From contig CBDCQT010000013.1 in the NCBI GenBank assembly GCA_965220745.1, positions 704,001 through 768,000 on the forward strand: 64,000 nt of DNA, read 5' to 3'. Both the position numbers and the translations under genes were made by a program. Of this stretch, positions 1 through 41,012 are shown piece by piece; the stretch's first letter is position 1, and each line of letters opens with the position of its first letter. The notes beneath the pieces were generated by a model. That model did no database searches. It had not been told where the DNA came from and saw only the letters and a program-made list of their open reading frames with translations. This DNA comes from Alphaproteobacteria bacterium (GTDB lineage: Bacteria > Pseudomonadota > Alphaproteobacteria > UBA828).

Positions 1-830
1 CGGGCAATAACGAGCCGGGCTGTGCCGGCAGGAGGCGCGAACGCGCCGAGGCTGCCGGCGGACAGCGCGGCGGCGGCGACGGTGTCCGGCATCGCGGTGA
101 CCAGCGACAGCACGGTCTCGATGCCCTCGCCGACCAGCAGCGTGCCGGCCGCCGGGTTGCCGAAGCGCACGGCGAGGCCGTGGACACGGCCGAGCGCCTT
201 GCGCGGCCGCGCCACGGGCGCTTTGGCCGGGCGCACCGGATCGAGCCAGGTGCGGTGGACGCCGGTAATGGAGCGGTGACCGGGGTGTTCCCCCGGAACA
301 GGGTGTTCCCCTGCGTCGCCGGTGACGGCGGCGACCAGCGCCGGCAGGCGGCGTATGCCGCCGCCGTCGCGGTAGAAGAGCGAGGGGTGGAAGCGGAGCG
401 CGGGGAAGCGGCAGCGGTGGATGTGCCGGGCGCGGAGATAGGCCTCGGCATGGGTGCCGTCGATGGCGCGGCAGCGCTGCCACAGGCGGCGCGCCGCTTC
501 CGTGCGGTCGTATGAGTCGGGGCCGCCGGCGACGGCCGCGGGCGGCAGCGCGAGGAAGGCGCGCGCCTCGGTGAGGGCGGCGCGGAGCGAGCCCGCGCCG
601 GAGGCGATGCGGATGAGATCGAGCAGGTCGCCGTGCTCGCCGGTGGCCGCATCCGTCCACTTGCCGGGGACGCCGGGCGGCGAGAGGCGGACGAAGAGCG
701 AGCGCCCGCGGGCGCCGCGAATGTCGCCGGCGGTCCAGTAGCGGCCGTGCTTGCGGCCGTGGGGAAGGTAGCGGCGGCAGACCTCCTCCGCGCGCGCGCC
801 GAGGGCGGCGGCGACGGCGGTGGCGTTCAT
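1..830 (-). CDS. Toprim-domain primase-like protein (outer element; runs off the window edge)
   Basis: Manual translation from ATG at 830: MNATAVAAALGARAEEVCRRYLPHGRKHGRYW...VGEGIETVLSL. Clear paralog of 10903..11883. Missing from the ORF track because it has no stop in the window. Confidence 0.85.
   Translation of the reverse strand, partial: MNATAVAAALGARAEEVCRRYLPHGRKHGRYWTAGDIRGARGRSLFVRLSPPGVPGKWTDAATGEHGDLLDLIRIASGAGSLRAALTEARAFLALPPAAVAGGPDSYDRTEAARRLWQRCRAIDGTHAEAYLRARHIHRCRFPALRFHPSLFYRDGGGIRRLPALVAAVTGDAGEHPVPGEHPGHRSITGVHRTWLDPVRPAKAPVARPRKALGRVHGLAVRFGNPAAGTLLVGEGIETVLSLVTAMPDTVAAAALSAGSLGAFAPPAGTARLVIA
277..312. repeat. Two tandem 18-bp units inserted in frame in the primase gene
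   Basis: TGACCGGGGTGTTCCCCC + GGAACAGGGTGTTCCCCT; they encode GEHPVP-GEHPGH, which is absent from the paralog (VTGSDEAVCGV). Confidence 0.8.
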
Positions 831-1354
831 GGCGCGCCTCCGGCGCGCCTGACGGCACCGGCGCGACCGGGACGACGGACAGGATCGGAGAGCATGGGAG
901 CACCTCGCTCGCGGCTGCCGGGGGAACGCCCGGTCCCGGCCCCTCTCCGACTCCTGCCGGCGCCGGGACGGCGGGCGATGCGCGAAGCGCGAGCCTTGCC
1001 GTCCGGCCGGGAGCGGCTCTGAACGGGCTGCAAAAAGGGGGCCACGCCGAAACGTGGCCCCGAGGGAGAGGGAGAGGCGAATGGAGGCTAGGACTTGCGG
1101 ATTGTGCGACTGACGAAGGCCCTGCCCGGACGGAAGCCCTTCATCGCGTCAACCGGCCCGTGGGCACGGCGGACGATCTTGAGGGAATCGCCAACCCTGG
1201 TCCATGTGGCGTAGGTCGTCTTCATGGTTCGTGCTCCTCTGCGGGTGACGGGAGTGAGGGGCGACCTCGCCTCGATCTCCCCTGGGATCACGCGTGAAGC
1301 GCACCCCTCTGACTCTTTGTCGGGACGGCGAGGCCTAGGGAAGGAGCGAAAAAA

Positions 1355-1391: not shown

Positions 1392-1467
1392 GGGTCAGCG
1401 GGAGGGAGGGACCCGCCGAAACGATGTTGGGAGGGGAAAAGTTACAAAGTCGAAATCGTCTAAAGCG

Positions 1468-1499
1468 AAAGCCCGCAGGGAGTTATCCCTGCGGGCTTT
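1468..1499 (-). terminator. Intrinsic terminator after ssb
   Basis: Perfect 14-bp inverted repeat AAAGCCCGCAGGGA-gtta-TCCCTGCGGGCTTT, about 20 bp past the ssb stop. Confidence 0.75.
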
Positions 1500-1520
1500 A
1501 CAGTTCCGGCAATGGGCCCT

Positions 1521-1816
1521 TTAGAAGGGGATACCGGAGCCGTCGTCCGTGTCGGACGGGGCGGCATCGGCGGTGGCCGTCGCCTCACCGTTGGCGGGCG
1601 GGGCGCCGTTGCCGTTGGTGCCGGCAGGCTTGTCCAGGAACTGGACGCGCCCGCCGGGGACCAGCAGGATCTCGGTGGAGAAGCGGTCCGAGTCCTCGCC
1701 GTCCTTGCGCCAGTTGCGGGTCTGGAGCTTGCCCGAGACGTAGACCAGGCGGCCCTTCTTCGCGTGCTTCTCGAGCATGTCGATCAGCCCGTCCTGGAAG
1801 GTGACGCAGCGGTGCC
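1521..1816 (-). pseudogene. ssb: 3' half of the interrupted single-stranded DNA-binding protein gene
   Basis: HRCVTFQDGLIDMLEKHAKKGRLVYVSGKLQTR...STEI...DDGSGIPF (acidic IPF tail). Joins in frame to 40846..41012. Confidence 0.92.
1810..1816. repeat. Left att core CGGTGCC
   Basis: Identical to 40846..40852; ssb similarity stops exactly here. Confidence 0.85.
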
Positions 1817-2043
1817 TTTCAGTAAGCAGAGGATTCTGCACAGGACACACGCACGCGGAGATACGATCAGGTACGATGAATTGGATGAAAACCGCAGAGT
1901 TCTGCCACTTTTCCGCCATAATGCCGTATCGCACTCCCGACAGGAGCACGCTCCGCTACGCGTCCATTCGACATCAGTCGCTTGCAAGGTGCTTACTGAG
2001 CGCCTACCATGCCCGACCGTCGAAAACTCGCTACACCCGACCC

Positions 2044-3225
2044 ATGCCCAGACGCGCCGAACGCAAACTCTCCAAGCGCACCATCGACGCCCTCGCCGTT
2101 GACGAGCGCGACGCCGTCTTCTGGGACCGCGACCTGCCCGGCTTCGGGGTCAGGGTCTATCCCTCCGGCCGCAAGGTCTACCTCGTGCAGACCAGGGGAC
2201 CGAAAGGCTCGAAGCGGGCAACGCTCGGCCGCCACGGAGACCTCACCCCGGACCAGGCTCGCAAGAAGGCTGCGGACGCCATCGACCGCATCAAGCGCGG
2301 CGAGGACCCGCTCCCGGCTGAGCCCAAGCCCGAGCCCACCGTGGCCGACCTGGCCGCGCACTACATGCGCGCCCATGTTGAGGTGAACTGCCAGCCGGCG
2401 ACCGTGAAGGACTACCGGCGCACCCTCGATCTGCACATCCTGCCCGCGCTCGGGGAGATGGCGCTCGCCTCGGTTGAGCGCAAGCATGCCGCCGACCTCC
2501 ACTACCGGCTTCGCGAGACGCCCACACGAGCGAACGCGGCGCTGAAGATCCTGTCCCACATGTTCGCCCTGGCTCCGGGCTGGGGCTTCGAGACGGGCGG
2601 CAGGAACCCCTGCCGCTTCGTGCGCGGCTATCGGGAGCGCAAGCGCGAGCGCTTCCTGACGCGCGACGAGTACCGCCGGCTGGGCGACGTCCTGGACGAG
2701 GCGGAGAAGGGCCGGATGTCGGTGTACACGGTGACCGCGATCCGCGTGCTGATGCTGACCGGGTGCCGGCGCAACGAGGTCCTTGAGCTGACGTGGGACG
2801 ACGTGGACCGGACCACGGGGGAGCTGCGGATTCGTCACGCCAAGACCGGCCCGCGCCGGGTGCCGCTGACGCCGCTCGTGGCGGAGATCCTTGACGCGCT
2901 CCCCCGCGTGGAGGGCAAGCCCTGGGTGTTTCCGGGCCGGGGCGCCGACGGCCGCCTGGTCAACATCAACGCGCCGTGGCAGGCCCTGTGCGCGCGCGCC
3001 GGGCTCAAGGACGTGCGCATCCATGACCTGCGTCATTCGTACGCCTCGCGCGCGCTGGCGCTGGGCGAGAGCCTGACCACCATCGGCGGTCTGCTCGGTC
3101 ACACGAAGGTGCGGACCACCGCGCGCTATGCGCACCTTGCGCGCGACACGGAGATCGCGGCTTCGGCGAAGATCGGGGCCAGCATCGGCGCCCATGTCCT
3201 GCAGGACGGGACCGAGCCTGCCTGA
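2044..3225 (+). CDS. Tyrosine integrase 1 with N-terminal arm-binding domain
   Basis: WDRDLPGFGVRV arm domain; catalytic TGCRRNE, AKTG, HDLRH, LLGH, TARY. Start placed at ATG 2044. Confidence 0.95.
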   Translation: MPRRAERKLSKRTIDALAVDERDAVFWDRDLPGFGVRVYPSGRKVYLVQTRGPKGSKRATLGRHGDLTPDQARKKAADAIDRIKRGEDPLPAEPKPEPTVADLAAHYMRAHVEVNCQPATVKDYRRTLDLHILPALGEMALASVERKHAADLHYRLRETPTRANAALKILSHMFALAPGWGFETGGRNPCRFVRGYRERKRERFLTRDEYRRLGDVLDEAEKGRMSVYTVTAIRVLMLTGCRRNEVLELTWDDVDRTTGELRIRHAKTGPRRVPLTPLVAEILDALPRVEGKPWVFPGRGADGRLVNINAPWQALCARAGLKDVRIHDLRHSYASRALALGESLTTIGGLLGHTKVRTTARYAHLARDTEIAASAKIGASIGAHVLQDGTEPA

Positions 3226-3252: not shown

Positions 3253-4494
3253 ATGGCGAAGCTGAAGCGGCGGTCGATCTCGCGCCGCACGGTCGACGCG
3301 TTGTCCGTCGACAAGGACACCGTGTTCTGGGACCGGGAGCTGACGGGCTTCGGAGTCCGCGTCTATCCGTCGGGGGCGAAGTACTACATCGTGCAGGTGC
3401 GCGGCCCGGAGGGCTCGAAGCGTCTCACGGTGGGCCGGCACGGCGTTATCACGGCGGACCAGGCGCGGCAGCGGGCGGCGCTGATCATCGCCCGGATCAA
3501 GGCGGGGGAGGACCCGATCCCGGCACCATTGCCGCCATCCCCGGACGGCCCGACGGTCGGCGAGATCGCGGCACGCTACCTTGAGCAGCATGTGGCGGTA
3601 CGCTGCAGGGCGAGCACGGCGAGCATGTACCGGCGCAAGATCGAGCGCTACATCCTGCCGGCCTTCGGCGCGTTGCCGCTTTCTGCGGTGACGCGCGAGC
3701 AAGTCGCGGCGCTGCACTACGAGCTTCGCGACAGGCCGGTGCTGGCGAACCACGTGGTCGAGGTCCTGTCGCGCCTGTTCACCATGGCCGAGTACTGGGG
3801 CCTTGCGGCCGAGGGCGGCAACCCGTGCCGGTTCGTGAAGCCCCACCGGGTGCGTCGGCGTGAGCGCTTTCTGACGGAGGAGGAGTTCACCCGCCTGGGC
3901 CGGGTTCTCGCCGAGGCGGAGACGGACGGCCCGGCGATGCCGAGCACGGTTGCGGCGATCAGGCTCCTCATGCTTACCGGGTGCCGTCGCAGCGAGATCC
4001 TGGAGCTTCGGTGGGACGACGTGGACCTGGAGCGCCGCGAGCTGAGGTTGCGCCACACCAAGACGGGGCCGCGCACGGTGCCGCTGAACCCTGCTGCGGT
4101 GCAGGTGCTGGCGGGGCTGCGGCGGGTGCCGGACAATCCCTGGGTGCTGCCGGGCCGGCAGCCGGGCCGGCGCATCTCGAGCCTCAACGAGCCCTGGCTG
4201 CGGCTTCGCAAGCGTGCCGGGCTGAAGGACGTGCGGCTTCATGACCTGCGTCACAGCTTTGCGTCGCGCGCGCTGGCGCTTGGGGAATCGCTTCCGATGA
4301 TCGCGCGGCTGCTGGGCCACGCCGAGGTGCAGACGACGGCGCACTATGCCCACCTGAGCCGCGAGGCCCTGAATGCGGCAGCGGCCAGGATCGCGGACAG
4401 CATCGGCGAAGACATCCTGCGCGGCAGCGCCGGCCTTCGCGCCGCTGAGAGGCGGGGCCGAGACGGACGCGGAACGGCAGGGGCAAGAGGGTAG
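3253..4494 (+). CDS. Tyrosine integrase 2 (paralog of integrase 1)
   Basis: WDRELTGFGVRV, TGCRRSE, TKTG, HDLRH, LLGH, TAHY. Confidence 0.95.
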   Translation: MAKLKRRSISRRTVDALSVDKDTVFWDRELTGFGVRVYPSGAKYYIVQVRGPEGSKRLTVGRHGVITADQARQRAALIIARIKAGEDPIPAPLPPSPDGPTVGEIAARYLEQHVAVRCRASTASMYRRKIERYILPAFGALPLSAVTREQVAALHYELRDRPVLANHVVEVLSRLFTMAEYWGLAAEGGNPCRFVKPHRVRRRERFLTEEEFTRLGRVLAEAETDGPAMPSTVAAIRLLMLTGCRRSEILELRWDDVDLERRELRLRHTKTGPRTVPLNPAAVQVLAGLRRVPDNPWVLPGRQPGRRISSLNEPWLRLRKRAGLKDVRLHDLRHSFASRALALGESLPMIARLLGHAEVQTTAHYAHLSREALNAAAARIADSIGEDILRGSAGLRAAERRGRDGRGTAGARG

Positions 4495-9142: not shown

Positions 9143-9391
9143 ATGCGCACCGTCTCCCTGATGACCGCCAACCAGGAGTTCTCGAAGCTCGTCCGCGAAG
9201 TCGAGCGCGGCGAGGGCTTCCTGATCACCCGCCGCGGGCGGCCCGTTGCCAAGCTCGTACCCCACAGCGCCGACAAGGACGCCGATCCCGAGTGGGCGGC
9301 GGCCCACCGGCGCATGATGGCGCGGCTGAAAGAGGGAGCGTCGCTCGGCGGCCTCAGGATCGAACGGGCCGCGCTTTATGACCGTGGTTAA
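9143..9391 (+). CDS. Phd/YefM-family antitoxin
   Basis: ANQEFSKLVREVERGEGFLITRRGRPVAKLVP; overlaps the toxin start. Confidence 0.9.
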   Translation: MRTVSLMTANQEFSKLVREVERGEGFLITRRGRPVAKLVPHSADKDADPEWAAAHRRMMARLKEGASLGGLRIERAALYDRG

Positions 9392-9839
9392 GGGGCGCTT
9401 CTCTCTGGATACCAACATTCTGGTCTATGCGGTCGACCGGGACGGCAGCGAGCGGCACTGGCTCTCCATGGAGCTGGTGGGGCGGGCGGCCCGGCGCGAC
9501 TGCGTCCTGACGGTTCAGGCGCTGGCCGAGTTCTTTCATGCCACCACCCGGAAGAACCTGCTCGAACCGTCCGAAGCCGGCCGGTTCGTGCGCGACTGGC
9601 TGGAGGTGTTCGAGGTCGCATCGGCCGACGGCGCGGCTCTCGCCGAGGCGATGGCAGCGGTGGACGAGCACCGGTTCTCGTTCTGGGACGCGATGCTCTG
9701 GGCGACCGCGAGGCAGGCGGGCTGCTCTGTCCTCGTGAGCGAAGACATGCAGCATGGACGCCGTCTAGGCGGCGTGGAGTTCGTCAACCCGTTCGCGCCC
9801 GACGGCCCCCCGGCGATGGCGACGATGTTCGATCTGTGA
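9378..9839 (+). CDS. vapC: PIN-domain toxin
   Basis: LDTNILVY, QALAEF, FSFWDAML, VSEDMQHG. Confidence 0.9.
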   Translation: MTVVKGRFSLDTNILVYAVDRDGSERHWLSMELVGRAARRDCVLTVQALAEFFHATTRKNLLEPSEAGRFVRDWLEVFEVASADGAALAEAMAAVDEHRFSFWDAMLWATARQAGCSVLVSEDMQHGRRLGGVEFVNPFAPDGPPAMATMFDL

Positions 9840-10167: not shown

Positions 10168-10617
10168 ATGAGTTTCGGACTGAACCGCGCAGAAGTCATT
10201 GGCCGCCTGGGTGCGGACGTCACCATCAACAGCCTCGCCTCCGGCGGGCGCGTGGCCAACATGAGCGTGGCGACCGATGAGTCGTATATCGACAGGGCCG
10301 CCGGCGGCGAGCGGATCGACAAGACAGAGTGGCATCGCGTCGTCAGCTTCCAGGACGGGCTGATCGACATGCTGGCGAAGCACGCGAAGAAGGGCCGGCT
10401 GGTGTACGTCGCGGGCAAGATGCAGACCAGGAAGTGGCGCAAGGAGGGCGAGGACAGCGACCGGTTCTCCACCGAGATCCTGTTGGTGCCCGGTTCGCGC
10501 GTCCAATTCCTGGACAAGCCTGCCGGCACCAACGGCAACGGCACGGCACCGGCCGACGGTGAGGCTCCGCCGGCCGGCGATGCCGCTTCGACAGGTGCCG
10601 ACGGCATTACATTCTAG
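10168..10617 (+). CDS. ssb: Single-stranded DNA-binding protein (intact copy in the inner element)
   Basis: LNRAEVIGRLGAD, VATDESY, TEWHRVV, GKMQTRKW, acidic tail; AAGGAG SD. Confidence 0.95.
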   Translation: MSFGLNRAEVIGRLGADVTINSLASGGRVANMSVATDESYIDRAAGGERIDKTEWHRVVSFQDGLIDMLAKHAKKGRLVYVAGKMQTRKWRKEGEDSDRFSTEILLVPGSRVQFLDKPAGTNGNGTAPADGEAPPAGDAASTGADGITF

Positions 10618-10656
10618 CGACCCTCCCCGCAGCGGGTTCCTACGCCCGCTCGCCCC

Positions 10657-10695
10657 ATGGCCGGCCCCGCGTCCCTCCCGCGCGGGGTCGGCCAT
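10657..10695 (+). promoter_or_regulatory. Hairpin downstream of inner ssb (terminator or ssDNA signal)
   Basis: ATGGCCGGCCCCGCG/CGCGGGGTCGGCCAT stem followed by TTCTT; homolog at 1355..1391. Confidence 0.55.
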
Positions 10696-10902
10696 TTCTT
10701 ATGCAGCCCGATCCGAGCCCTTCACAGGACGGACGGCGGGGCTCGCGCTTCGCGCGCCGCCCCTCGTCCCGGCGCCGACAAGAGTAAGGAGACGCCGGGA
10801 CCGGGGCGCGTCCCATGCTGCGTCCAGCGAGGTCCCCATGCTCCCCATGACCGCCGACGGTCCCGGCTTCGCCGGCTCCCGCCCACGCCCGAGGAGTGCG
10901 CC

Positions 10903-11883
10903 ATGAACGCGGCCGCCGTCGCCGCAGCGCTTGCCGAGCGCGCCGAGGAGGTCTGCCGCCGATACCTGCCCTACGGACGCCGCCGGGGCCGGTACTGGGT
11001 CGCGGGCGACCTCGACGGCGGGCGCGGGCGATCCCTCTTCGTCCGCCTCGCGCCTCCGGGCGTGCCGGGGAAATTCACCGATGCGGCCACGGCCGAGCAT
11101 GGCGATCTTCTCGACATCGTCCGCCACCGCATCAACGCGCCGACGCTTCGCGCGGCGCTCGACGAAGCGCGCGCCTTCCTCGCCCGGCCGGCCGTGCCGG
11201 CCCAGGGCGCGGGCGACGCCTACGACGCCACCGAGGCGGCACGCCGCCTCTGGCGCCGCTGCCGCGCCATCGACGGCACCCATGCAGAAGCCTACCTTCA
11301 CGCTAGGGGGCTCGCGCGCTGCCGCTTCCCCGCCCTGCGCTATCACCCTGCGTTGCTCTACAGGGGTGTCGGTGGCGTGCGCCGCCTGCCGGCCCTGGTC
11401 GCCGCCGTCACCGGCTCCGATGAAGCCGTCTGCGGCGTGCTGCGAACGTGGTTGCACCCGACCGAGCCCGCCAAGGCGAATGTGAGTCGCCCGCGCAAGG
11501 CGCTGGGCCGCGTACACGGCCATGCCGTGCGCTTCGGCCGCCCCGCCGACGGAGCTTCGCTCCTCGTCGGCGAGGGCATCGAGACGGTGCTCTCCCTGGT
11601 GACCGCCTCGCCCGAGATCACCGCCGCCGCAGCGCTGTCCGCCGGCAGCCTCGGCGCCTTCGCGCCGCCTGCCGGCACAGCCCGCCTCGTCATCGCCAGG
11701 GACAACGACGAAGAAGGCGAGCGCGCGGCTCTCCGCCTCGCCCGGCGCTGCGCGCGGGCGGGCGTCGCCGCCACCGTCATCGTGCCTCGCGGCACCGACT
11801 TCAACGAGGATTTGCTCACCTTCGGTCCCGCCGCGCTCGCCGCCTGGACGGCGGCCGCGCTCGCAGACCGGGAGCCCGGGTGA
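10903..11883 (+). CDS. Toprim-domain primase-like protein
   Basis: GEGIETVLS and IARDND toprim acidic motifs, TDFNEDL; GAGGAG SD before ATG 10903. Confidence 0.88.
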   Translation: MNAAAVAAALAERAEEVCRRYLPYGRRRGRYWVAGDLDGGRGRSLFVRLAPPGVPGKFTDAATAEHGDLLDIVRHRINAPTLRAALDEARAFLARPAVPAQGAGDAYDATEAARRLWRRCRAIDGTHAEAYLHARGLARCRFPALRYHPALLYRGVGGVRRLPALVAAVTGSDEAVCGVLRTWLHPTEPAKANVSRPRKALGRVHGHAVRFGRPADGASLLVGEGIETVLSLVTASPEITAAAALSAGSLGAFAPPAGTARLVIARDNDEEGERAALRLARRCARAGVAATVIVPRGTDFNEDLLTFGPAALAAWTAAALADREPG

Positions 11884-12187: not shown

Positions 12188-12834
12188 GCGGTGACGAGCG
12201 GCACCGGCGGTGTCATCGGCGGCACCGGGAGCGGCTCGCTCTCGATCCCGTCGCCCGGCCCGCGGCCGGCACCGTGCCTCCCATCGCCTCGACGGCGCCA
12301 CGCCGCTCTCTCTCTTGCAGGATACAGAAACAAGGGGTCCGTCCGTCGTGATGTCCGAGGGTTCCACGCGTGCTCGCGGCAGCAACCCTGCGGGTCCTTC
12401 GGTCGCTCCGCTCCCTGCGGCCTGGCCCAAGGAACTGTAAGGCGGGCCGTGAAGTTCGGCGACCGTGAAGATGGCTTGCGAGTAATCGCCAACCGCCTCG
12501 TCTCGCAGCGCGCCGGCCCCTGACGCGGGGCCGTCGCGTCACGCTGCACCGCCTCAAATCCATTCGCGGAACCGTTCGTGGCGGCGCCTAGACGCCGGGC
12601 AGGCCCAAGCGGGCCTCCCCGGCCCGGCGCCGTAATGACCACTGGAATGGATTTGCTGCGGAGCACCGTTCCCACCGGCACGCCGGCACCATCTTCCGCA
12701 CCAGCTCGCCGAACTTCCGCGCCACCCCGCCTAACAGTTCCTAAGGCCAGGTGCTGCCTCTGCGCGCGCGTGAATCAAGAAGGACATCACAACGGGGCAC
12801 AGGGTCCCGGAGGTTGAACCAACAGGAGATCGTC

Positions 12835-13749
12835 ATGATCGACACTACCGCAACTGCTTCCTCCACTGCCACGGTCTGCGAGAGCATGGCCCTCTACGGC
12901 GCAGCGCCCGAGCGCGGCGAGCTCGACAGCAGGGTCGTCTGGGACGAGGACGACGCCATCGACGCGCTGAACGAAGCCATCCGCGTCATCGTCGAGGGTA
13001 TCACCGTAGACGGCACACAGATGGCCGACGAGCGCGAGCCCCTGATGTGGGGCCTGACCAACATGCTGCACTCCCAGATCACCCGCCTCGACCGCGCCGT
13101 CGACCGCATCGCGCCCGAGATGCGCGACCTCGAGAAGGCGCAGGATGGATCGGAGGTGAAGGCGCACGAGCTCGAGACGATGACCGACCGTGCCCGGAAC
13201 CTCGGCGACCGGCGCGACGCCTTCGAGAAGATGCGCGACCTCGCCGCCGACGCCTACCGCGTCGAGACCGGCGACACCTGGCGCCCGAGGCACGGCTCGC
13301 ACACGAGCCAGACCGGACAGCTCACCTCCGCCGCCATCGACGCCCGCGACTTCCGCAGAGCCCGCAAGGACCGCGAGACAAGAGCGCACCTGCCCGAGGG
13401 CACCCTGGTCGCCATCACCGGCGGCAAGACCGTCAGCGATGCCGACGCCGTCTGGAGCACGCTCGACATGGCGCGCGCCAAGTACGGCGACATGGTCCTG
13501 CTCCACGGTGGCGGTCCCGGCGTCGAGAAGGTCGCCGCGAGCTGGGCCGAGGCCAGAGGCGTCAACCAGGTCGTCTGCCGCCCCGACTGGACCGCCCACG
13601 GCAAGGCCGCGCCCTTCCGCCGCAACGACGAGCTGCTGAACTTCCTGCCCAAGGGCGTCATCGCATTCCCCGGCAGCGGCATCACCGGCAACCTCGTCGA
13701 CAAGGCGAAGACGTTGGGCATACCTGTGATGACCGTCAAAGCCGCGTAA
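12835..13749 (+). CDS. DUF2493 (YspA/SLOG-like) domain protein
   Basis: C-terminal VAITGG, LLHGG..GVEKVA, AAPFRRND, IAFPGSGIT; AGGAG SD. Confidence 0.8.
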   Translation: MIDTTATASSTATVCESMALYGAAPERGELDSRVVWDEDDAIDALNEAIRVIVEGITVDGTQMADEREPLMWGLTNMLHSQITRLDRAVDRIAPEMRDLEKAQDGSEVKAHELETMTDRARNLGDRRDAFEKMRDLAADAYRVETGDTWRPRHGSHTSQTGQLTSAAIDARDFRRARKDRETRAHLPEGTLVAITGGKTVSDADAVWSTLDMARAKYGDMVLLHGGGPGVEKVAASWAEARGVNQVVCRPDWTAHGKAAPFRRNDELLNFLPKGVIAFPGSGITGNLVDKAKTLGIPVMTVKAA

Positions 13750-27550: not shown

Positions 27551-30500
27551 CTACAGTTCCAGCTCGAGCTCGTACTCGTAGGTCTTCTCGCGCTTCGGCC
27601 GCGCAGGCGGAGCAGGCCGTCGATCGGCCGGGGCGGGGTCGCCGACATCGGCGCGCTCCAACGGCGCAGGTGCCGGCGCACCGCGTTCACGGTCCCGCTG
27701 CGGCACAGACTTGGGCTCTACCGGCTGGCGCGCCGCATCGTCCCTGGCCTTGCCGTCCCTCGCCGGACTGTCCGCCGGCGACGGCGCGATGGCTTCGAGG
27801 GCGGCGATGCGTTCTCCCGTCGCCGCCTCCAGGCGCTCGCGCAGTGCGCGGCGGTCGTCGGTCACCAGCTCGGCATGAAGGCGGGCACGGCTGATCTCCA
27901 CGTAGAAGGTTTTTTGGGTGGTCAGATGGGCGTGCTCCGCTTCCATCGCCGCGATCACCCGGTCCACGGTGCGGCCCTGGAACGCGTGCACCGTCGCTGC
28001 CCAGGCCCGGTCGATATGGCGCAGCTGGGGATCGTCCCGGCGCAGCGTCAGAGCCCGGCCGTCCTCCAGCCGGAACGAGACGGCTCTCTCGCCGACCGCC
28101 GACACCTCCGCCGTGCCGCTGTTCACCAGCCCGTGCCTCCTGTCGTTGCGGGTCCAGCACACCCGGTCGCCGCGGCGAAGCTCCATGGCATCCACGGCGT
28201 AGACCTCCACCCCGCCGCGCCGCGCCGCCAGCCTGGCGGGTTCCCAGGCGACGGTAGCGCCATGCTTGCCTTGCAGCGTCACCACGCCTGCGGCGCGGTC
28301 GACAGCTGCGACGCTGATCTCGTCGCCCTTGTCGACCCCGAGACGCTTGTAGCGGCGGTGGAAGGCCACGACATCGCCCGGGACATAGTTCGCGGCAAGC
28401 GACTTCTCGGCATTGGTATAGCCGCGCGAGACGAGCCTCTCGCCATCGATCGCAGGCCCATCGATGACGCCGTCGCGGACCAGGCGCTCGCGGACGATGG
28501 TGTTGGTCTTCTCTCTCAGCGCGTGGCTGGGGGCCATCAGCCCCGTGACCTCCCGCTCTCCGGGCGAGAGCGCAAGCCAGCGCGCGGCGGCAGCGCCCGC
28601 AAGATTGTCCGCCTTCACCTCCGCGACGTTGTCGCCGAGTTTTCGGAAGGCCCGGTGAATGTCGCCGGCGAGGCTGGCCTCGACGGCCTCCTTCAGCGCC
28701 GGCTCGCGCTGGCGCACGATCTCATCCATCACCGCGCACGTCATGCCTGCGGTCTGCAGCTGCGCGAAGGGCTTGCCGGCGTCGACGGCATCGAGCTGCT
28801 TCTCGTCACCCACCAGGATCACACGGGGGATGCGGAGCGTGTCGGCGATCCTGAGAAGGTCGCGGGTCTGCGCGGTGGAGGCGAGGGAGCCCTCGTCCAC
28901 CACCAGCACGGTCTTGCGGAACCGTGCCTTCATGGCCCGCTCGCCCCTGCGGGAGAGCCGATCCTCGGCAACGCCCGCGTTGCGGGCGAGGAAGCCCTGC
29001 AGGGTCTCGCTGGCAATGCCGGCCTCCGCATCGAGAGTGCGCGCCGCAGAGGCCGACGGCGCCAGGCCCCTGACCTCGAAGCCGCGCTTCTCCAGCAGAG
29101 CCCGCGCCCTGTTCAGCATGGTGGTCTTGCCGGTGCCGGCATAGCCCTGCACGCCCACGACGCGATCGTTGTGGGACAGGATCACCTTCACCGCCTCCTT
29201 CTGCCCGGTCGTAAGGGGGCCGTTGCGGAGCGCCTTGTCGACGGCGCGCCCGCGCATGGGAGCAGCACCCCGCCCCTGTCCGCGTTCCATCAGCGCTATG
29301 GTCTCGCGTTCGTCGGCGACAGTCCTGTCGGTGGTGAGCGAATCCCCCGGCACGGGGTAGTCCGCAGCCAGCAGGGTGCCGGCCTTCTCCAGCCGCGTGA
29401 CGGCGGCCTCAGCCTCGCCGATGCTCACCTTGCCGGGATTCCAGGCGAGAGTCGAGGTGAGGAGATCGGTTCGCGAGAATACCGCCTCTCTCTCGGAGAG
29501 GTGCGCCACGGCCCAGGCGGCCGCCCGGTCCACTTCCGCCGTCGTACCAGGCTCCGCCTCCCGGTGCTGGCCTGCACGGGCGAGGGGTCGGTCTCCGTAG
29601 GCCGCCTGCCGGTGCCGGGCCTCGTTCACGAACTCACTTGCGTCGAAGCCCAGTTCCGAGGCCTGCCTCTGCCAGCTCTCGCGCAGGGCGTCCCTGTCCA
29701 CCTCGCGCTTGTGGGCGCGGGTCATGAGCGCCGCGCGCGCCGCCAGATGGGGGTTGCTTCCGGGATCGCCCTGGCTGCGAGCGTCCATCGCCGCCTCGAT
29801 CTCGGCGCGCCTGGTGGAAAAGGCCTCGACGATGGACCGCGATACGGGGGACCGCCCTGGTGCACCCGCGATCTCGAACCGCCCGTCCGCGTGGGTCTTC
29901 TCGATGCCGTAGCCGAGCTCCTCCAGGCCTCTCGCCAGCTCGGCGCGGTAGAGCGCGCCGATCAGCATCTTGGACGCATAGAGCTTCTCGTTGGCCATGG
30001 TGCGCCACTTCGCGGAACGGGGCGTTTCCCCGGACCGGGGCGTTCCCCCGTCCTGACCCTGCACCATGTTGGCGATCACCGCGTGCGTGTGGAGCTGTGG
30101 GTCGAGGTTGCGCGAGACCTCGTGGCGGAAGGTGGCGATCACCGCCTTCTGGTCTCCGGTGCGCACCATGCGGCCGCTGTCTGCATCCATCGTCCTGGTC
30201 TCGACCGCGTTCTTCTCGATCCAGGCAAGTGTCCTGCGCACGGCGGCGTCATGGGCAGCGACGATGCGTTCGTCGCCGCCGATCAGGGCCGCGATGGATA
30301 CGGACTTGGGCGCGGAGAAGGTGACGTCGCGGCCGGGGCGGTGGTCGATCGTACCGTCCCCCAGCCTGCGGCCGAGCCGGCGGCCCGAGCCGTCGGGGAC
30401 TTCGCCCGCGAGGATGTCGCTGAAGACGTCCGGATCGACCGGCCCGGAGAGCCCCAGAGCGTCCGCGCCCCTGCCCGCCCAGGCGCTGGCCTCCCGGTGG

Positions 30501-30589
30501 GCGTCGTCGTCCTTGGCGTAGTAGCCGTCTCGCTCGTAGTAGGAGACCCCCTGGGCAGGCGAGGCGATGGCGCCGATGGAGGCGACCAT
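27551..30589 (-). CDS. mobF: MOB-F (TrwC/TraI-like) relaxase-helicase
   Basis: YYERDGYY, DVTFSAPKSVS, HEVSRNLDPQLHTH (HUH), FSTRRAEI, GYAGTGKT, HAFQGRT; start at ATG 30589. Confidence 0.95.
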   Translation of the reverse strand: MVASIGAIASPAQGVSYYERDGYYAKDDDAHREASAWAGRGADALGLSGPVDPDVFSDILAGEVPDGSGRRLGRRLGDGTIDHRPGRDVTFSAPKSVSIAALIGGDERIVAAHDAAVRRTLAWIEKNAVETRTMDADSGRMVRTGDQKAVIATFRHEVSRNLDPQLHTHAVIANMVQGQDGGTPRSGETPRSAKWRTMANEKLYASKMLIGALYRAELARGLEELGYGIEKTHADGRFEIAGAPGRSPVSRSIVEAFSTRRAEIEAAMDARSQGDPGSNPHLAARAALMTRAHKREVDRDALRESWQRQASELGFDASEFVNEARHRQAAYGDRPLARAGQHREAEPGTTAEVDRAAAWAVAHLSEREAVFSRTDLLTSTLAWNPGKVSIGEAEAAVTRLEKAGTLLAADYPVPGDSLTTDRTVADERETIALMERGQGRGAAPMRGRAVDKALRNGPLTTGQKEAVKVILSHNDRVVGVQGYAGTGKTTMLNRARALLEKRGFEVRGLAPSASAARTLDAEAGIASETLQGFLARNAGVAEDRLSRRGERAMKARFRKTVLVVDEGSLASTAQTRDLLRIADTLRIPRVILVGDEKQLDAVDAGKPFAQLQTAGMTCAVMDEIVRQREPALKEAVEASLAGDIHRAFRKLGDNVAEVKADNLAGAAAARWLALSPGEREVTGLMAPSHALREKTNTIVRERLVRDGVIDGPAIDGERLVSRGYTNAEKSLAANYVPGDVVAFHRRYKRLGVDKGDEISVAAVDRAAGVVTLQGKHGATVAWEPARLAARRGGVEVYAVDAMELRRGDRVCWTRNDRRHGLVNSGTAEVSAVGERAVSFRLEDGRALTLRRDDPQLRHIDRAWAATVHAFQGRTVDRVIAAMEAEHAHLTTQKTFYVEISRARLHAELVTDDRRALRERLEAATGERIAALEAIAPSPADSPARDGKARDDAARQPVEPKSVPQRDRERGAPAPAPLERADVGDPAPADRRPAPPARPKREKTYEYELELEL
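29846..29863 (-). repeat. Single 18-bp unit, inverted orientation, in the relaxase gene
   Basis: GCACCAGGGCGGTCCCCC (15/18 identical to the unit at 30032); gives FEIAG[APGRSP]VSR. Confidence 0.65.
30014..30049. repeat. Two tandem 18-bp units in the relaxase gene
   Basis: GGAACGGGGCGTTTCCCC + GGACCGGGGCGTTCCCCC; encode GGTPRS-GETPRS before AKWRT. Confidence 0.8.
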
Positions 30590-30590
30590 G

Positions 30591-32588
30591 TCAGAACTTG
30601 ACCCAGGGCGGCTGCGTCTTCTTCTCTTCCGCCGGCGTGCCGACTGCCGCCTTCTCCGTGCCTTCGCCCGATGAGGACGCGGCTCCGTTGCCGTCAGGGT
30701 CAGCGCTGGCCGGCCCCTCCGCCGTCTCGGGCGGAGGCTCCGCATTGGGGGTCTCGTCGGATTGCCGCGCGTCCGGCGCCGGCACGGCGCCTTCGCCGGC
30801 CGGGTGTGTCAGTCGAGCCGGCGGTCCGCCGGCGCGGCTCGGATCGCGGCTGTCGTCGGGCCTCGGCACGAAGCGCACCGCGACGATGTCCCGCTTCCGG
30901 TACTTCAGCCTGATCCGTGCGACCGGCGAGGGGCCGGGGAACTTCAGGTAGCCCGACAGGTTCTCAAGACGCGATACCTCCGACGGAAGAACCAGGGGAC
31001 GCTCCTCGCGCCGCGTGCTCAGCGTCACGCCGCCGTGCGCGGTCTCGTAGCTCACGCCCTCCGAGAGGGTCTCGACCTCCACTTTGCCCAGGCTCCCCGC
31101 CGACCACTCGGACGTGTCCTTGTCGGGTGACGCCAACACGACCCGGGTGCCGCACAGCCCCGAGATCGTCTGCGCAAGGTCGCGCCCGTAGAGGTCCCGC
31201 AGGGCGGAGAACACCTGCACGCCGAGCACGAAGCAGCCTCCGAACTGCCGGCTCTCCGAAAGGCCGGGATCGAGGCTCGGGAGCTGGTGCAGGGTCGGCA
31301 GCTCGTCCAGGATCACCCAGATGCGGCGTGAGTCGGAGCGCGACAGCGAGAGCAGCGAGTTGACCGCGATCTCCAGCCAGGTGGAGATCAGCCCCCGCAG
31401 GCTCGCGTGCTGGTCGCCCCGCGACGTGAGAAACAGGCAGCCGCCGCTTCCCTCGCGTTCGATCCACTTCCTGATGGAGAAGGGGTCGCCCTCGTCGGGC
31501 AGCACCTCCATGGCGCCGATGTTGGCAGTCAGCATGGCGCGCACCGAGAGCGCGGTCTTCGGGTTGGCGAGATCGACGATGGACTGGGTCACGGTGCCCT
31601 CCATGGCCTCCGCGAGCTCGCTCAGATCGGTCTTGAGCAGACGGTCCACCAGCACCCGGTTACGTGTCTCTCCCCGCTGCCAGAGCACGGCCGCGCCGTG
31701 AGAGAAGAGCTGGCGTGCGGCGGTGATCCAGAAGGGGTCTGCGGCATCCTTCTGGCGGGGGATCAGCGCTGCCGCCATCGTGTCGAAGTCCAGCGCGGTG
31801 CGGGCCTCGAGGAAGGGCGACCAGCGCGGCGCGCGGTCGTCGAGGGGATTGAGCAGGACGTCCCGGCGCTTGTCGAAGAAGGTTTCGGTATAGCTCCCCA
31901 TCTTGTCGTAGATGACGCAACGCTCGCCCCGGCTGCGGATCTGCTCGACCAGGTCCGAGATGAGCACCGTCTTGCCCGAGCCCGTGGTGCCGGAGACGAT
32001 CGTGTGGTGCCTCTCGGCACCCTTCGGCCAGGGGATGCCGGCGATGCGGTAGGGCCGGGCCTCGGCGGGGCGGTCCCGCGGCCGCAACCGCCGCCACCAT
32101 GGCAGGGTGCGATGCCTCAGCTCCTTCGCGCTTGCCAGCTCGCCGCCCCGCAAGCGCTTGCCGCGCCCCAGTCTTTGCCCCAACAGGCGCAGCCCGAAGA
32201 GGACGGCGGCGGCCAGGCCCGCACAGCCGCCGCCACCGAGCAGAGCGGCATCGACGGCATCCCCCAGCAGGCGATCCCGATAGTCGAGGATCACGGGGTG
32301 TCTCGTGATGGTGTCGAGGGTCATGACCAGGACGGTTCCGTCCACGTCGCGGATCTTCTTGGTCTTGTCGGGCTTGAAATCGGCAACGAGCATGAACTCG
32401 CTCAGCGCGTAGACGCCGAAGACGTGCCAGTCGTGGTTGGTGTAGTCGCTGGTGGTCTTCCAGACAGCAGCGCCCAGGCCCGCGAGGATGACGCCGATGC
32501 CGATCCACCAGCCGAACCTGAACCACGTGCGAAAGCCCCGGGTAGCAACCCGGAGTCCGCGACCGGTGTCGCCGCCCACCCCGGTCAT
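30591..32588 (-). CDS. traD: Type IV coupling protein (TraD/TrwB-like)
   Basis: N-terminal TM helices, GTTGSGKT, IYDKMG, LNPLDDR, ILDELPTL, SRQFGG. Confidence 0.92.
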   Translation of the reverse strand: MTGVGGDTGRGLRVATRGFRTWFRFGWWIGIGVILAGLGAAVWKTTSDYTNHDWHVFGVYALSEFMLVADFKPDKTKKIRDVDGTVLVMTLDTITRHPVILDYRDRLLGDAVDAALLGGGGCAGLAAAVLFGLRLLGQRLGRGKRLRGGELASAKELRHRTLPWWRRLRPRDRPAEARPYRIAGIPWPKGAERHHTIVSGTTGSGKTVLISDLVEQIRSRGERCVIYDKMGSYTETFFDKRRDVLLNPLDDRAPRWSPFLEARTALDFDTMAAALIPRQKDAADPFWITAARQLFSHGAAVLWQRGETRNRVLVDRLLKTDLSELAEAMEGTVTQSIVDLANPKTALSVRAMLTANIGAMEVLPDEGDPFSIRKWIEREGSGGCLFLTSRGDQHASLRGLISTWLEIAVNSLLSLSRSDSRRIWVILDELPTLHQLPSLDPGLSESRQFGGCFVLGVQVFSALRDLYGRDLAQTISGLCGTRVVLASPDKDTSEWSAGSLGKVEVETLSEGVSYETAHGGVTLSTRREERPLVLPSEVSRLENLSGYLKFPGPSPVARIRLKYRKRDIVAVRFVPRPDDSRDPSRAGGPPARLTHPAGEGAVPAPDARQSDETPNAEPPPETAEGPASADPDGNGAASSSGEGTEKAAVGTPAEEKKTQPPWVKF

Positions 32589-35365: not shown

Positions 35366-38300
35366 ATGAACATCGGTGCCGCAGTCTCGGGCAGCCTCTT
35401 TGCCAACGATTTCCTTTGTGAATCCGTTGGCCAGACGCCTGACTGGCAGGATCTGAACGCAACCTCATTCGACGCATTCGAGGCGGCGTTGCGGGCCATC
35501 GTTGACAACTTCCCCTTCGCCGGCGCGCCCAACGAGAGCCAGACAGAGGACGACCTGATCTGGCCCGTGCTCGGGGTCCTTGGCTGGTCGGCCAGCCTGC
35601 GGCAGCAAAACCTCAGCGCACACGGCATGACGGACGTGCCGGATGGCTTGCTGTTCGCGGACGAGGCGACGAAGGGCCAAGCCAACCGCTTCGCCCAGGA
35701 GTGGAGGCGCTACGAGCTTGGCCTTGCGGTGGTGGAGTCCAAACGCTGGCAGCGCCCGCTCGACCGCCGCTCCGGGAGAGCCGGCGAGGAGACGGCGCCA
35801 TCGACCCAGATGCTGCGCTATCTGCGGCGCGTCGACGATCTCACCACCGGCAGGCTGCGCTGGGGCATTCTCACCAACGGCGCACGCTGGCGGCTCTACT
35901 ACCAGGGCGCGCGCTCGGTGTCTGAGCAGTTCTTCGAGGTCGATCTCCCGGCGATCCTCGACCTCCCCGGCCACAACGACGGCCTCTTCGCCCTCGACGA
36001 CGCGGAGCGGCGCCACTGCCTCAAGCTGTTCGCGCTGGTCTTCCGGCGCGAGGCCTTCCTGCCCGGTGCGGTGGACGAGCGCACCTTCCATCAGCGCGCC
36101 ATCGAGGAAGGCCGCTTCTACGAGGAGCGTGTTGCCGCCAGCCTCTCCGATCTGGTCTTCGGCCAGGTCTTCCCCGAGCTCGCCCGTGCGATCGCCGCCG
36201 CCGCGCCGGACTCGCCCCTGCCCGAGGTACGCGAGGCCACGCTGATCCTGCTCTATCGGCTGCTGTTCATCCTCTATGCCGAGGACCGCGACCTGCTGCC
36301 GGTCCGGGACGAGCGCTACGACGACTACGCGCTGCGCGACCGCGTTCGCGACGATATCGGTCGTCGCAAGGACCAAGGAGACACCTTCGCCGAAACCCTA
36401 ACGACCTATTGGTCGGCGGTGGACGATCTTTGCCGTGCCATCGACCAAGGCGAGGTCTCCATCGGCCTGCCGCCCTACAACGGCGGCCTGTTCGACCGCG
36501 CACGTGTGCCGCTGCTCGACCGCATCCGGCTCGGCGACCGGATGATGGCGGATGTCATCGACGCGCTTTCCTTCGAGCAGAGCGAGGCAGGGCGCCGCTA
36601 CATCAACTATCGCGATCTCGGGGTTCGCCAGCTCGGCTCGATCTACGAACGCCTTCTGGAACACGAGCTCGTCCGAGAGGGCGACGCGGTGGCCGTGCGC
36701 CCCAACATCTTCGCCCGCAAGGGCTCGGGCAGCTACTACACGCCCGACGACCTGGTGGGACTGATCGTCGAGGAGACCATCGGCCCCCTGGTGCAGGCGC
36801 GCATGGACGGCTTCATGGAAGAAGCTGGGCGCGTGCCCGAAAATGGACACGCCCGCGAGCGGGCCGTGGCGCGCCTGGCGGAACACGACCCCGCCGAGGC
36901 GATTCTCGCCGTCAAGGTCTGCGATCCCGCCATGGGATCAGGCCACTTCCTCGTCACGCTGGTGGATTATCTCGCCGACCAGGTGGTCGGCGCCATGGCC
37001 GAGGCAGAAGCGGCGGTCGAGGGCTACGTCTCGCCGCTCGCCAGCCGCATCCAGGCCATCCGCGACCGGATCGTGGCGAACGCGGAAGAGCGCAACTGGG
37101 CCTTGGACAAGGACCGGCTCGACGACCGTCACATCGTCCGACGCATGGTGCTGAAGCGCTGCGTCTACGGGGTCGACAAGAACCCGATGGCGGTGGAGCT
37201 GGCCAAAGTCGCGCTCTGGCTGCACACCTTCACCGTCGGCGCGCCGCTCAGCTTCCTGGATCACCACCTCCGCTGCGGCGACAGCCTGTTCGGCGCCTGG
37301 GCGCGGAGCGGAATCGACAAGGCGACCGACTATGGCAGCCCCCTGCTCTTGCACGGCTCAATCGCCGAAGCGGAACGGTCGGCGCGGTCGATGCAGACGA
37401 TCGAGGACCTGACCGACGCCGAGATCGCCGAGGCGCATCGCTCCGCTGAGACCTTCGCCGAGGTGGAGGCGGCAACGGCGCCCCTCGATGCCGTCCTTCG
37501 CCTCGTGCATGCCCTCGATTGGCTGGAGGTGAAGGACCGGGACGGCAAGACGGCGCTACAATCCTTCTTCGGCGGCCTGCTCGGTGATCCTATCGACATC
37601 GCGCTGGGCCAGGTAGAGGTATCGACGGAGCGAGTGGAGAGCGCGTCGTTCATCGGACTGTTGGGTGAGGCCCGGCGCATCGTCGCGGAGGAGCGCTTTC
37701 TCAACTGGCAAGCGGCGTTCCCCGGCGTTTGGTTGAACTGGCAGAGCGCGGGCCTCGAAGGCGGCTTCGACGCCGTGATCGGCAATCCGCCCTGGGACCG
37801 GATGAAGCTGCAACAGGTGGAGTGGTTCGCGACGCGGCGGCCCGAGATCGCGCTTGCGCCGCGCGCGGCCGACCGCAAGCGCATGATTGCGGCGCTGGAG
37901 CGCGACGGCGATCCGCTGGCGAGGGACTACGCGCTGGCAAGCGAGCGAGCGGCGATGGCCGTCCGTACGGCGCGGCGATCCGGCGATTATCCGCTGCTGT
38001 CGAGCGGGGACGTGAACCTCTATTCACTCTTCGTCGAGCGCGCGATGACACTCGTGAAGCCCGACGGCATGATGGGGCTCCTCACGCCCTCCGGCATTGC
38101 GTCGGACAAGACGGCCGCCCGCTTCTTCAAGGGCGTGGCGACCGAAGGGCGGCTGAAAGCGCTCTATGACTTCGAGAACCGGCGCACGCGTTATGACGCG
38201 CCGCCTTTCTTCCCCGACGTGGACAGCCGCTTCAAGTTCTGTGCCTTCGTGGCCAGCCCGTCCCCCCTCGCCGACACCGCGCGGTGCGCGTTCTTCCTGC

Positions 38301-39668: not shown

Positions 39669-40004
39669 ATGACAGGGACCGACGATGCGCTCTTGCAGCG
39701 TATGGTAGCCACAATCGTGAAGGAGGTGGACCCCGAACAGGTGATACTCTTCGGCTCCCGTGCGCGCGGCAACGCAGCTACGGACTCCGACGTCGATCTG
39801 GTGGTAATCGAAACCGCACCGTTCGGCGAAGAGAGGGACCGCCGCACGGAAGCAGTGCGCCTTTGGAGAGCGCTGGCGGGCTTTCGCGTTCCCAAGGACA
39901 TTCTGGTCTATAGCCGCGACGAGGCCGAATATTGGCGGCACTCCCTCAACCATGTGCTCGCGCGCGCTTTGCGCGAGGGCAGGGTCCTCTATGAGCGACC
40001 ATAG
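39669..40004 (+). CDS. Minimal nucleotidyltransferase (MNT) antitoxin
   Basis: LFGSRARG...DSDVDLVV. Confidence 0.9.
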   Translation: MTGTDDALLQRMVATIVKEVDPEQVILFGSRARGNAATDSDVDLVVIETAPFGEERDRRTEAVRLWRALAGFRVPKDILVYSRDEAEYWRHSLNHVLARALREGRVLYERP

Positions 40005-40413
40005 GCAAGCGCGTATCCTCGTAGGAGCGGCGGAAAAGGATATCACCGCCCTGCGCGGCATGAGCGATGCCGACATCTTCGCTGACGAGATTTTCGGCTT
40101 TCATGCACAACAGGCGGTGGAAAAGCTGTTCAAGGCGTGGCTCGCTCTGTTGGGTCGAACCTACCCGCCAATCCACGACCTATCCGAACTTCTCTCGATG
40201 TTGATCGAATGCCAGTCAGACGCCGCGCGATTCGAGCCCTTGATCGAATACACTCCCTACGCCGTCCAGTTCCGCTACGGAATCGGCGACACCGGCAGCG
40301 TGCCACTCGATCGGGACGCCGCCCTTCTGGGAACAGAAGCGTTGCTTGCCGAAGTTCAGTGCAAACTGCCAGACGAAGACGACCCGACTTCGACGGTTGA
40401 TTCGCGTAAGTAG
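39991..40413 (+). CDS. HEPN-domain protein (MNT-HEPN pair)
   Basis: GFHAQQAVEKLFKAWL, HDLSELL, YAVQFRY; start at ATG 39991. Confidence 0.88.
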   Translation: MSDHRQARILVGAAEKDITALRGMSDADIFADEIFGFHAQQAVEKLFKAWLALLGRTYPPIHDLSELLSMLIECQSDAARFEPLIEYTPYAVQFRYGIGDTGSVPLDRDAALLGTEALLAEVQCKLPDEDDPTSTVDSRK

Positions 40414-40845: not shown

Positions 40846-40852
40846 CGGTGCC
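40846..40852. repeat. Right att core CGGTGCC
   Basis: Identical to 1810..1816; AT-rich palindromic DNA lies just inside. Confidence 0.85.
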
Positions 40853-41012
40853 ACTGGGTCTGGTCCTTCCGCTCGCCGGTCTGGCGATCGATATAGCTCT
40901 CGTCGGTCGCGATGCTCATGTTGGCAACGCGCCCGCCGGAAGCCAGGTGGTTGACAGTGACGTCGGCGCCGAGGCGGCCGATCAACTGCGCCATGTTGAG
41001 TCCGAAAGCCAT
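40846..41012 (-). pseudogene. ssb: 5' half of the interrupted ssb
   Basis: MAFGLNMAQLIGRLGADVTVNHLASGGRVANMSIATDESYIDRQTGERKDQTQWHR, then an immediate stop inside the insert; AGGAG SD. Confidence 0.92.

Follow-up and report, generated by a model that had tools for sequence, protein, structure and literature searches.

Nested integration into the backbone genes of transferable elements builds composite elements with many cargo genes, and most descriptions of it concern serine-recombinase elements of Firmicutes. Integrative mobilizable elements (IMEs) of Firmicutes with serine recombinases are reported to insert site-specifically in the traG, Maff2-like and SNF2 genes of integrative and conjugative elements (ICEs), the hosts named being of the Tn5252 superfamily or the ICESa2603 family (PMC5704250), and Tn1806 to insert into snf2 of ICESa2603-family elements (PMC12942858). 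'Tyr duo' tandem tyrosine recombinases are noted for MTnPi1-3 of Prevotella intermedia (PMC5704250). The term ssb has zero occurrences in that review (PMC5704250), and in literature phrase searches, with subscription-only literature and supplements outside their scope, no description of an attachment site in ssb came up. In this work, we analyzed a window of 64,000 nucleotides (the whole stretch, from contig CBDCQT010000013.1 of an alphaproteobacterium of the lineage UBA828), which is GC-rich (about 68-70%) and contains a 39-kb element inserted into an ssb gene. The reading that we favor, with a probability of about 0.7, is that this element is an IME integrated site-specifically into the ssb gene of a sibling element, that its own ssb gene and the Toprim-domain gene behind it are part of its backbone, and that self-protection of the carried ssb copy is plausible.

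The disrupted (outer) ssb gene, on the minus strand, is split in two at its Trp-His-Arg (WHR) codons by an insert of 39,036 bp (window 1817-40852, one core copy counted). With the protein of the intact, inner ssb carried by the insert as query, tblastn against the window returned two minus-strand pieces, corresponding to aa 1-57 at 41012-40845 (77%) and aa 53-149 at 1823-1524 (76%); at the nucleotide level, the outer N-part is 76% and the outer C-part 84% identical to the inner ssb. On the minus strand, the N-piece reads ...CAG TGG CAC CG up to the junction, beyond which the AT-rich foreign sequence ATAGAGATTGAATTTGAC... brings a stop at once; in the C-piece the foreign ...CTTACTGAAA comes first and ssb resumes at GGCACCG CTGCGTCACC.... 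The only sequence common to both junctions is GGCACCG, and what is present is therefore one ssb gene split by the insert. Moreover, an intact ssb in another genome (locus L055 in G032; here G032, G037, G040 and G046 are other genomes, C numbers are contigs and L numbers are loci) has the sequence of the reconstructed empty site (attB), that is, the window halves joined across one core. The two halves match this allele at 94.0% (N-part) and 99.0% (C-part) of nucleotides with zero indels, and the disrupted gene has thus not decayed. As in the overlap region of lambda-type integrases, the identical 7 bp stand at both junctions, and the same heptamer is found in G032 and G040.

The insertion recurs beyond this genome. 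Across all 49 genomes of the order, the orthologs of the first of the two tandem integrases (integrase 1) are 98% (G032), 94% (G040) and 79% (G037) identical, the next best being at most 65%. An ssb C-part starting at aa 53 lies just upstream of integrase 1 in three of the 30 best loci in the order, all of them at 94% identity or more, giving three ssb-targeting elements of this integrase type (window, G032 and G040). Their integrase pairs are 94-98% identical, and the left junction (...CTTACTGAAA GGCACCG...) is the same to the base in the three genomes, with the flanking ssb alleles reading, after the core, CTGCGTCACC in the window, CATCGTCACC in G032 and CTGCGTGACC in G040. At the left end in G032 the element is about 97% identical to that of the window and the adjoining ssb roughly 85% (by eye); at the right junction the values are 97% for the element and 69-77% for the host context. 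Overall, element copies 95-98% identical stand in different outer contexts in three genomes. Because a near-identical integrase pair is found at the same ssb position in different ssb alleles, the insertion is, on this comparative evidence, site-specific and recent, and the insertions of the window, G032 and G040 are independent events of an element that has been mobile recently. The claim of the original prediction, made from the letters of this stretch alone, that the element destroys an ssb by site-specific integration is hence borne out by the junctions and by their recurrence in G032 and G040. Elsewhere, a species-representative genome collection contained one close integrase-1 locus (L017, 98%), which is the same record as G032, and metagenome contigs contained one, of 3.6 kb, ending 136 bp upstream of the integrase and so short of the junction; in a plasmid collection, five records matched integrase 1, all below 60% identity. 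No second copy of the element ends was found in its own genome. Parts of the left junction region (window 1400-2400) also occur in sponge, coral and marine metagenome contigs from several studies.

The nature of the insert was judged from Pfam and NCBIfam scans of the open reading frames (ORFs) of the window (Table 1). Both integrases have a catalytic domain (PF00589, 5e-22 and 3e-26) and an N-terminal arm-type DNA-binding domain (PF13356, 1.3e-13 and 1.2e-11), both show the motifs ...GCRRNE..., HDLRHS, LLGH and RYAHL, and the set of catalytic residues is complete. No domain of a mating pore (type IV secretion system, T4SS) was detected in the 35 element ORFs scanned, and VirB4/TrbE (PF03135) has zero matches in the whole 4.8-Mb genome, despite several modules of relaxase and coupling protein there, other VirB4-like families not having been searched. 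With integrases, a relaxase and a coupling protein and without mating-pore genes, window 1817-40852 is therefore, as far as gene content can tell, an IME. The outer element contains the split ssb and genes for Toprim, YAcAr, TrwC relaxase and coupling protein in the same relative order as in the insert, the last three just left of the window; the disrupted host is, at this level of gene layout, a sibling element of the invader. To the right of the insert lie ParB-like, DUF3150, DUF6197, Strawberry-notch helicase, macro/2OG-oxygenase and toxin-antitoxin genes. Further to the right, a XerC/D-like tyrosine recombinase of 333 aa (window 62788-63789, minus strand) adjoins a GC drop to 54.5% (63001-64000), and together they may mark the right boundary of the host element; beyond this recombinase are ordinary chromosomal genes (TonB receptor, LysR).

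Table 1. Features of the window, listed by position.
Feature	Position	Strand	Remarks
Outer (host element) DUF7146-Toprim gene, 3' of the disrupted ssb, running off the window start	1..1035	-	Pfam DUF7146 4.4e-31, Toprim_3 8e-08
C-terminal part of the disrupted outer ssb (WHR codons to stop, in frame; includes left core)	1524..1816	-	76.0% aa identity to inner ssb
7-bp crossover core at the left junction (minus strand: GGCACCG)	1810..1816	.	Sole identity between junctions; same junction in G032 and G040
Left arm of the element (attP-derived), several TACG-containing motifs seen by eye	1817..2043	.	About 97% identical to G032 copy
Tyrosine integrase 1 of the tandem pair	2044..3225	+	Pfam Arm-DNA-bind_3, SAM-like, Phage_integrase; R, HxxR, H, Y motifs
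Second tyrosine integrase of the pair (integrase 2), sharing 55-58% identity with the first	3253..4494	+	Pair kept together in G032 and G040
UPF0149 gene	Between integrase pair and Phd/PIN pair		Pfam/NCBIfam
Phd/YefM antitoxin and PIN toxin pair	9143..9839	+	Pfam
Element-borne intact ssb, 149 aa	10168..10617	+	PF00436 4.7e-22 (78.5 bits); TIGR00621 88 bits (cut-off 53.95)
Pseudo-core GGCATCG inside the element-borne ssb	10331..10337	+	One synonymous mismatch to GGCACCG (CAC>CAT)
Element-borne DUF7146-Toprim_3 gene, frame open from 10657	10903..11883	+	Pfam DUF7146 2.1e-31, Toprim_3 1.2e-21, Toprim_2 4.3e-06
YAcAr (SLOG) domain gene, after ssb-Toprim, conserved in family	12751..13749	+	Pfam 3e-23; homolog in outer element, same relative place
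Metabolic cargo: PPK2, TetR regulator, GMC oxidoreductase, ABC transporter	Between YAcAr gene and relaxase		Pfam/NCBIfam
MOBF (TrwC-type) relaxase-helicase	27551..30745	-	Pfam TrwC 5.2e-79; NCBIfam MobF 267 bits (cut-off 100)
Type IV coupling protein (TraD/TrwB-like)	30591..32588	-	Pfam TrwB_AAD_bind 1.2e-131
Eco57I-like fused restriction-modification gene (cargo)	35366..39445	+	Pfam Eco57I 3e-21
Gene pair for a nucleotidyltransferase and a HEPN protein, close to the right end	39669..40413	+	Pfam
Right copy of the 7-bp crossover core GGCACCG	40846..40852	.	In G032, too, the right end ATAGAGATTGAATTTGAC adjoins an ssb N-part
N-terminal part of the disrupted outer ssb (aa 1-57, stop directly after, inside the element)	40846..41012	-	77.2% aa identity to inner ssb

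Regarding the ssb-Toprim pair, it was proposed in the original prediction that the insert carries a replacement for the gene that it destroys. The evidence does not support a replacement built for this purpose. Further ssb-Toprim pairs are found in the same genome on contigs C3, C9 and C10; that of C3 follows another tandem integrase pair at a distance of 5 kb, in the layout of the window element, the C9 contig also bears a tandem integrase pair, and the flanks of both integrase pairs are not ssb. Since siblings at non-ssb sites and the disrupted host element itself carry the pair, ssb-Toprim is, from its distribution, an ordinary backbone module of the element family and not an acquired replacement, and an invader belonging to this family therefore brings it automatically. 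Among the 21 genomes of the genus, SSB matches number from 1 to 27 per genome (27 in G040), the chromosomal gene and fragments included, and of the 150 matches listed, the great majority are full-length and belong to this element type. Homologs of integrase 1 (E <= 1e-120) occur in 19 of the 20 other genus genomes, often as adjacent pairs, and the genome under study has 40 integrase matches at E <= 1e-10. Tandem-integrase elements at C9:27360-28260, C10:809106-810006 and C8:10772-11672 adjoin the start of a small lipoprotein-like gene (product MKKTKLTRSL...), their flanks containing repeated CTACG/GTACG motifs; this gene is a candidate for a different conserved attachment site, used by sibling integrase pairs.

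The sequence observations of the original prediction are correct in all their details. The inner ssb, which was called very similar to the disrupted one, is a homolog with about 77% identity at the protein level; it keeps the Trp-His motif of the SSB OB-fold (WHR at aa 55-57) and purifying selection has acted on it, its dN/dS against eight relatives being 0.15-0.32 (100 codons). The same type of gene does follow each ssb, the inner and outer DUF7146-Toprim proteins being 72% identical over 312 aa, and of the features of a primase it has the Toprim catalytic domain. No zinc-finger or primase Pfam family was found in the element-borne Toprim protein, for which NCBIfam gave partial matches below the cut-off alone (TraI C-terminal region, PRK07078); as there is neither a zinc-binding domain nor a primase model above its cut-off, the label 'primase' would be a guess, and the cautious designation is DUF7146-Toprim protein. 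In G040, an ssb copy (L051) shares its tail exactly with the carried SSB but belongs, by its N-terminal part, to another clade, an indication of mosaic recombination between copies of ssb.

Is the carried copy protected from the integrases of its own element, and was this protection selected? The altered heptamer reported for the inner ssb, GGCATCG instead of GGCACCG, is confirmed, with a synonymous CAC>CAT change in codons that read GAG TGG CAT CGC. All three carried copies have a synonymous change at the core, by two routes: CAT CGC in the window and in G040 (L068), CAC AGG in G032 (L052). An anchored pattern search in the 21 genus genomes, counted by hand, gave 130 ssb sites, of which 89 read CAC CGN, 28 CAT CGN and 13 CAC AGG. 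The comparison of WHR codons put forward in the original prediction gives a suggestive difference between the carried copies (3/3 altered) and the others (38/127), with a one-sided Fisher p = 0.030 that takes no account of phylogeny and concerns three related copies; however, CAT and AGG both stand near their normal codon frequencies. Taking as background 993 long ORFs of the element's own genome, AGG at the core Arg amounts to 10% vs 5.7% genome-wide (6.8% for AGG or AGA together). A family-wide escape of the ssb core from invasion was considered and rejected, the 41 altered cores among 130 (31.5%) being compared with about 26.8% expected from codon usage under neutrality. When the WHR codons were masked in a tree of 27 ssb genes, the carried copy of G032 fell in a clade mixing AGG and CGG, and the carried copy of G040 (CAT) is sister to a CAC copy (L070), being the only carried copy with a CAC sister.

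The core is only one part of the site. Intact-core ssb genes stand unoccupied beside the element on contigs C10 and C3 of its own genome and at L055 in G032, and the core alone therefore does not define susceptibility. By allele class, the three real targets are all WHR(C/I)VT (31/130 sites) and the three carried copies all WHR(V/A)VS, whose AGC codon is present in 24 of the 127 other ssb sites; the element is thus specific for the WHR core in one subset of the ssb alleles. Such right-arm differences may already exclude the carried copies, so that a core change is not needed to explain protection. The arms of the dyad, said to be degraded in the inner copy, are so as a description: the window target, GACCCAG-N8-CTGCGTC, is symmetric at 6/7 positions and the carried copy, GACAGAG-N8-CGTCGTC, at 4/7. 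Nevertheless, the bona fide target of G032, GACCGAG-N8-CATCGTC, is on our reading also symmetric at 4/7, equal to the carried copy of the window, and a degraded dyad hence fails to tell targets from non-targets. Lambda-type integrases need identity in an overlap region of roughly 7 bp, and a single mismatch should therefore prevent attP from recombining with the internal ssb, a recombination that otherwise would invert or split the excised element. By this reasoning the carried ssb is very probably a poor substrate for the integrases of the element. The resistance to self-insertion that had been proposed keeps in its favor the core mismatch of the three carried copies, set against codon frequencies close to neutral and variants shared with relatives; as an adaptation for self-protection, the mismatch is suggestive, being mechanistically reasonable and statistically weak.

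Other integrases have also entered ssb in this genus. With the one described above, at least three integration systems use three positions of the gene (about 150 codons), namely codons 44-46, codons 55-57 (WHR) and codons 68-76. The second system is seen in G040 (C1:311208-347211, L083 and L084), where a single tyrosine integrase, about 30% identical to that of the window, stands directly after an ssb N-part (aa 1-76) and the C-part (aa 68-149), with a Toprim gene behind it, is found about 35.5 kb further on; this 35.5-kb element carries a relaxase and an ssb-Toprim pair of its own. In G037 (C7:269043-270659, L089), a 90% ortholog of this integrase lies behind an ssb N-part at the same position, no carried ssb or C-part being detectable for this copy. 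The crossover of the second system falls around GAGAA in the codons of MLEKHAKK, and its carried ssb reads MLTKNARK, a non-synonymous change. The ACC that it has at the Glu codon is unique among 101 ssb sites; 44 of these 101 differ there anyway, and the support lent by the second system is therefore weak. A third type interrupts ssb after codon 44, in G040 (C3:63058-70452, L082) and G037 (C22:69377-70174, L085), with an element end, TCTCGTGTTTCATGATGCACC, conserved in the two genomes. At 250 bp downstream stands an uninterrupted ssb that has the same orientation and a ribosome-binding site of its own and could be read from the host promoter. Partial matches suggest several more insertions of the third type in G046. 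In addition, an element resembling an insertion sequence (IS) interrupts another ssb of G032 within the WHR codons (L073 on C24 and L069 on C30, the halves being on different contigs); its inverted ends begin with TGTAAAAGGAC, and 5 bp (ACCGC) are duplicated.

These three systems bear on a bolder explanation of the window, according to which the ssb-Toprim pair was selected because the element destroys one such pair, and the synonymous core change was selected against self-insertion or intramolecular recombination. The core changes of the three carried copies by two routes, the CAC sister of the G040 copy, the altered site in the ssb carried by the unrelated integrase at codons 68-76 and the full ssb placed behind the truncated N-part in the third type all speak for this explanation. 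However, it has to be reconciled with a sample of three elements whose carried copies are related, with a window CAT shared by copies in other elements and an AGG copy from a mixed clade, with a genus-wide altered fraction close to the neutral one, with ssb-Toprim pairs in siblings that insert elsewhere, with a second system that adds little and with right-arm differences that could explain protection by themselves, and we consider it unlikely. Equally tentative is its extension, in which the accessory ssb would be a contested landing pad for at least three unrelated systems, each invader bringing an ssb with its cognate site altered or placing the copy behind the truncated gene. If true, this would be a general replace-and-immunize strategy, in which the synonymous sites of a protein motif evolve under integrase selection.

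Returning to site-specific integration into a sibling's ssb with a backbone ssb-Toprim pair on board, several observations weigh against this interpretation. As for the recombination machinery, no Xis-like Pfam or NCBIfam match indicative of an excisionase was found among the small ORFs tested, and repeat and k-mer scans of the element arms gave no clear arm-type repeat family, TACG motifs being seen by eye in the left arm and beside other integrase pairs. The right junction and the ssb N-part of G040 were not found within 60 kb, and no excised circle or empty site was seen in this organism, contigs from public runs being unable to show either. The 79% ortholog of integrase 1 in G037 (L021, C9:170176-171339) has a similar element end, TTTCAGTAAG, which adjoins non-ssb AT-rich DNA, ...CGCATGCC, at a site reading GGCATGC..., and such integrases may not need the exact core; this site would be either a secondary site or a sign of shifted specificity. 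Regarding protection, CAT at the core His is found in 28 of 130 sites (21.5%), precisely its genome-wide share of 21.5%, and the mismatch may be neutral; moreover, the window copy groups in the 27-gene tree with L054 and L057, which also have CAT, yet lie outside such elements. Regarding function, the carried SSB ends in ...GADGITF (window 10597-10617), whereas 26 of the 28 family members examined have a PF tip, as expected of the acidic C-terminal tail by which bacterial SSBs bind partners, with its (I/L/V/P)-P-F end; in Escherichia coli SSB, the penultimate proline matters for partner binding (ssb-113). In addition, the carried ssb is on the strand opposite to the disrupted one and 8 kb inside the element from the nearest end. 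The complementation of the destroyed gene that was originally predicted stays plausible on the basis of an intact gene under purifying selection, whereas the tip, the strand and the internal position argue against a perfect replacement.

That the split ssb is an artefact or a non-specific event, through mis-assembly between paralogs, homologous recombination or transposition, is highly improbable even in a genome with at least five similar ssb copies and many similar integrases, which invite assembly errors, and with an IS having a 5-bp duplication known a few bases from the same spot in another G032 ssb: contigs from two of four metagenome runs (two studies) bridge the left junction by at least 31 nt on each side, making mis-assembly very unlikely, the junction is identical to the base in three assemblies with different flanking alleles, its identity is limited to 7 bp beside AT-rich element arms, and the two outer halves sum exactly to an intact allele.

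The mechanism that we propose for the sibling-into-sibling integration is as follows. The tandem lambda-type integrases would recombine the element into the sibling's ssb by crossover within the GGCACCG of the invariant Trp-His-Arg motif, a step that the junctions document. As this motif leaves only two synonymous positions free, the site would stay conserved across diverged ssb alleles. Disruption would be tolerated because the target is an accessory copy. The carried ssb-Toprim pair plausibly supplies SSB in trans to the host element, since the carried ssb is intact and purifying selection acts on it. In addition, the insertion probably separates the host Toprim gene from the ssb promoter, a polar effect for which the carried pair may compensate. 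Finally, given the known homology requirement, the core mismatch together with the different right-arm allele class would avoid recombination between attP and the internal site.

The case concerns an alphaproteobacterial genus crowded with such elements, in which the target is an invariant motif with two free synonymous positions, and it raises the question of whether one synonymous base can decide if a gene is invadable, and whether invaders protect their own copy. If true, it would be a clear example of a conflict between mobile elements driving selection on synonymous sites, and it would provide a natural set of attB variants for studies of the specificity of tandem integrases.

Compared with known systems, the element resembles the nested IMEs of Firmicutes in that it is integrated site-specifically within a conserved backbone gene of a second transferable element, disrupts this gene and forms a composite. 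It differs from them by a pair of tyrosine integrases in place of serine recombinases, by ssb as its target, by its alphaproteobacterial host and by the kinship of invader and host element, which are siblings, the invader carrying a paralog of the disrupted gene. With lambda-type integrases it shares the arm-binding, SAM-like and catalytic domains, the 7-bp identity of the junctions as overlap and AT-rich arms; unlike lambda-type systems, it has two adjacent, diverged integrase genes (55-58%) and integrates in mid-gene without restoring the gene. Two tandem tyrosine recombinase genes also form the integration module of the mobilizable or conjugative 'Tyr duo' elements, MTnPi1-3 and ICEMh1, the latter reportedly with a tandem integrase pair; these belong to other phyla and have other targets, and the likeness is one of gene arrangement. 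Accessory SSB genes such as that of the F plasmid are non-essential second ssb copies on a transferable element, beside transfer or establishment genes. The ssb of the present family is likewise a non-essential second copy on a transferable element; unlike these accessory genes, it serves as attachment site, belongs to a set of up to 27 ssb matches per genome and, in the window copy, has no PF tip. Brought together here are a tyrosine-integrase pair, an ssb target, an alphaproteobacterial host and the nesting of like in like with a paralog on board.

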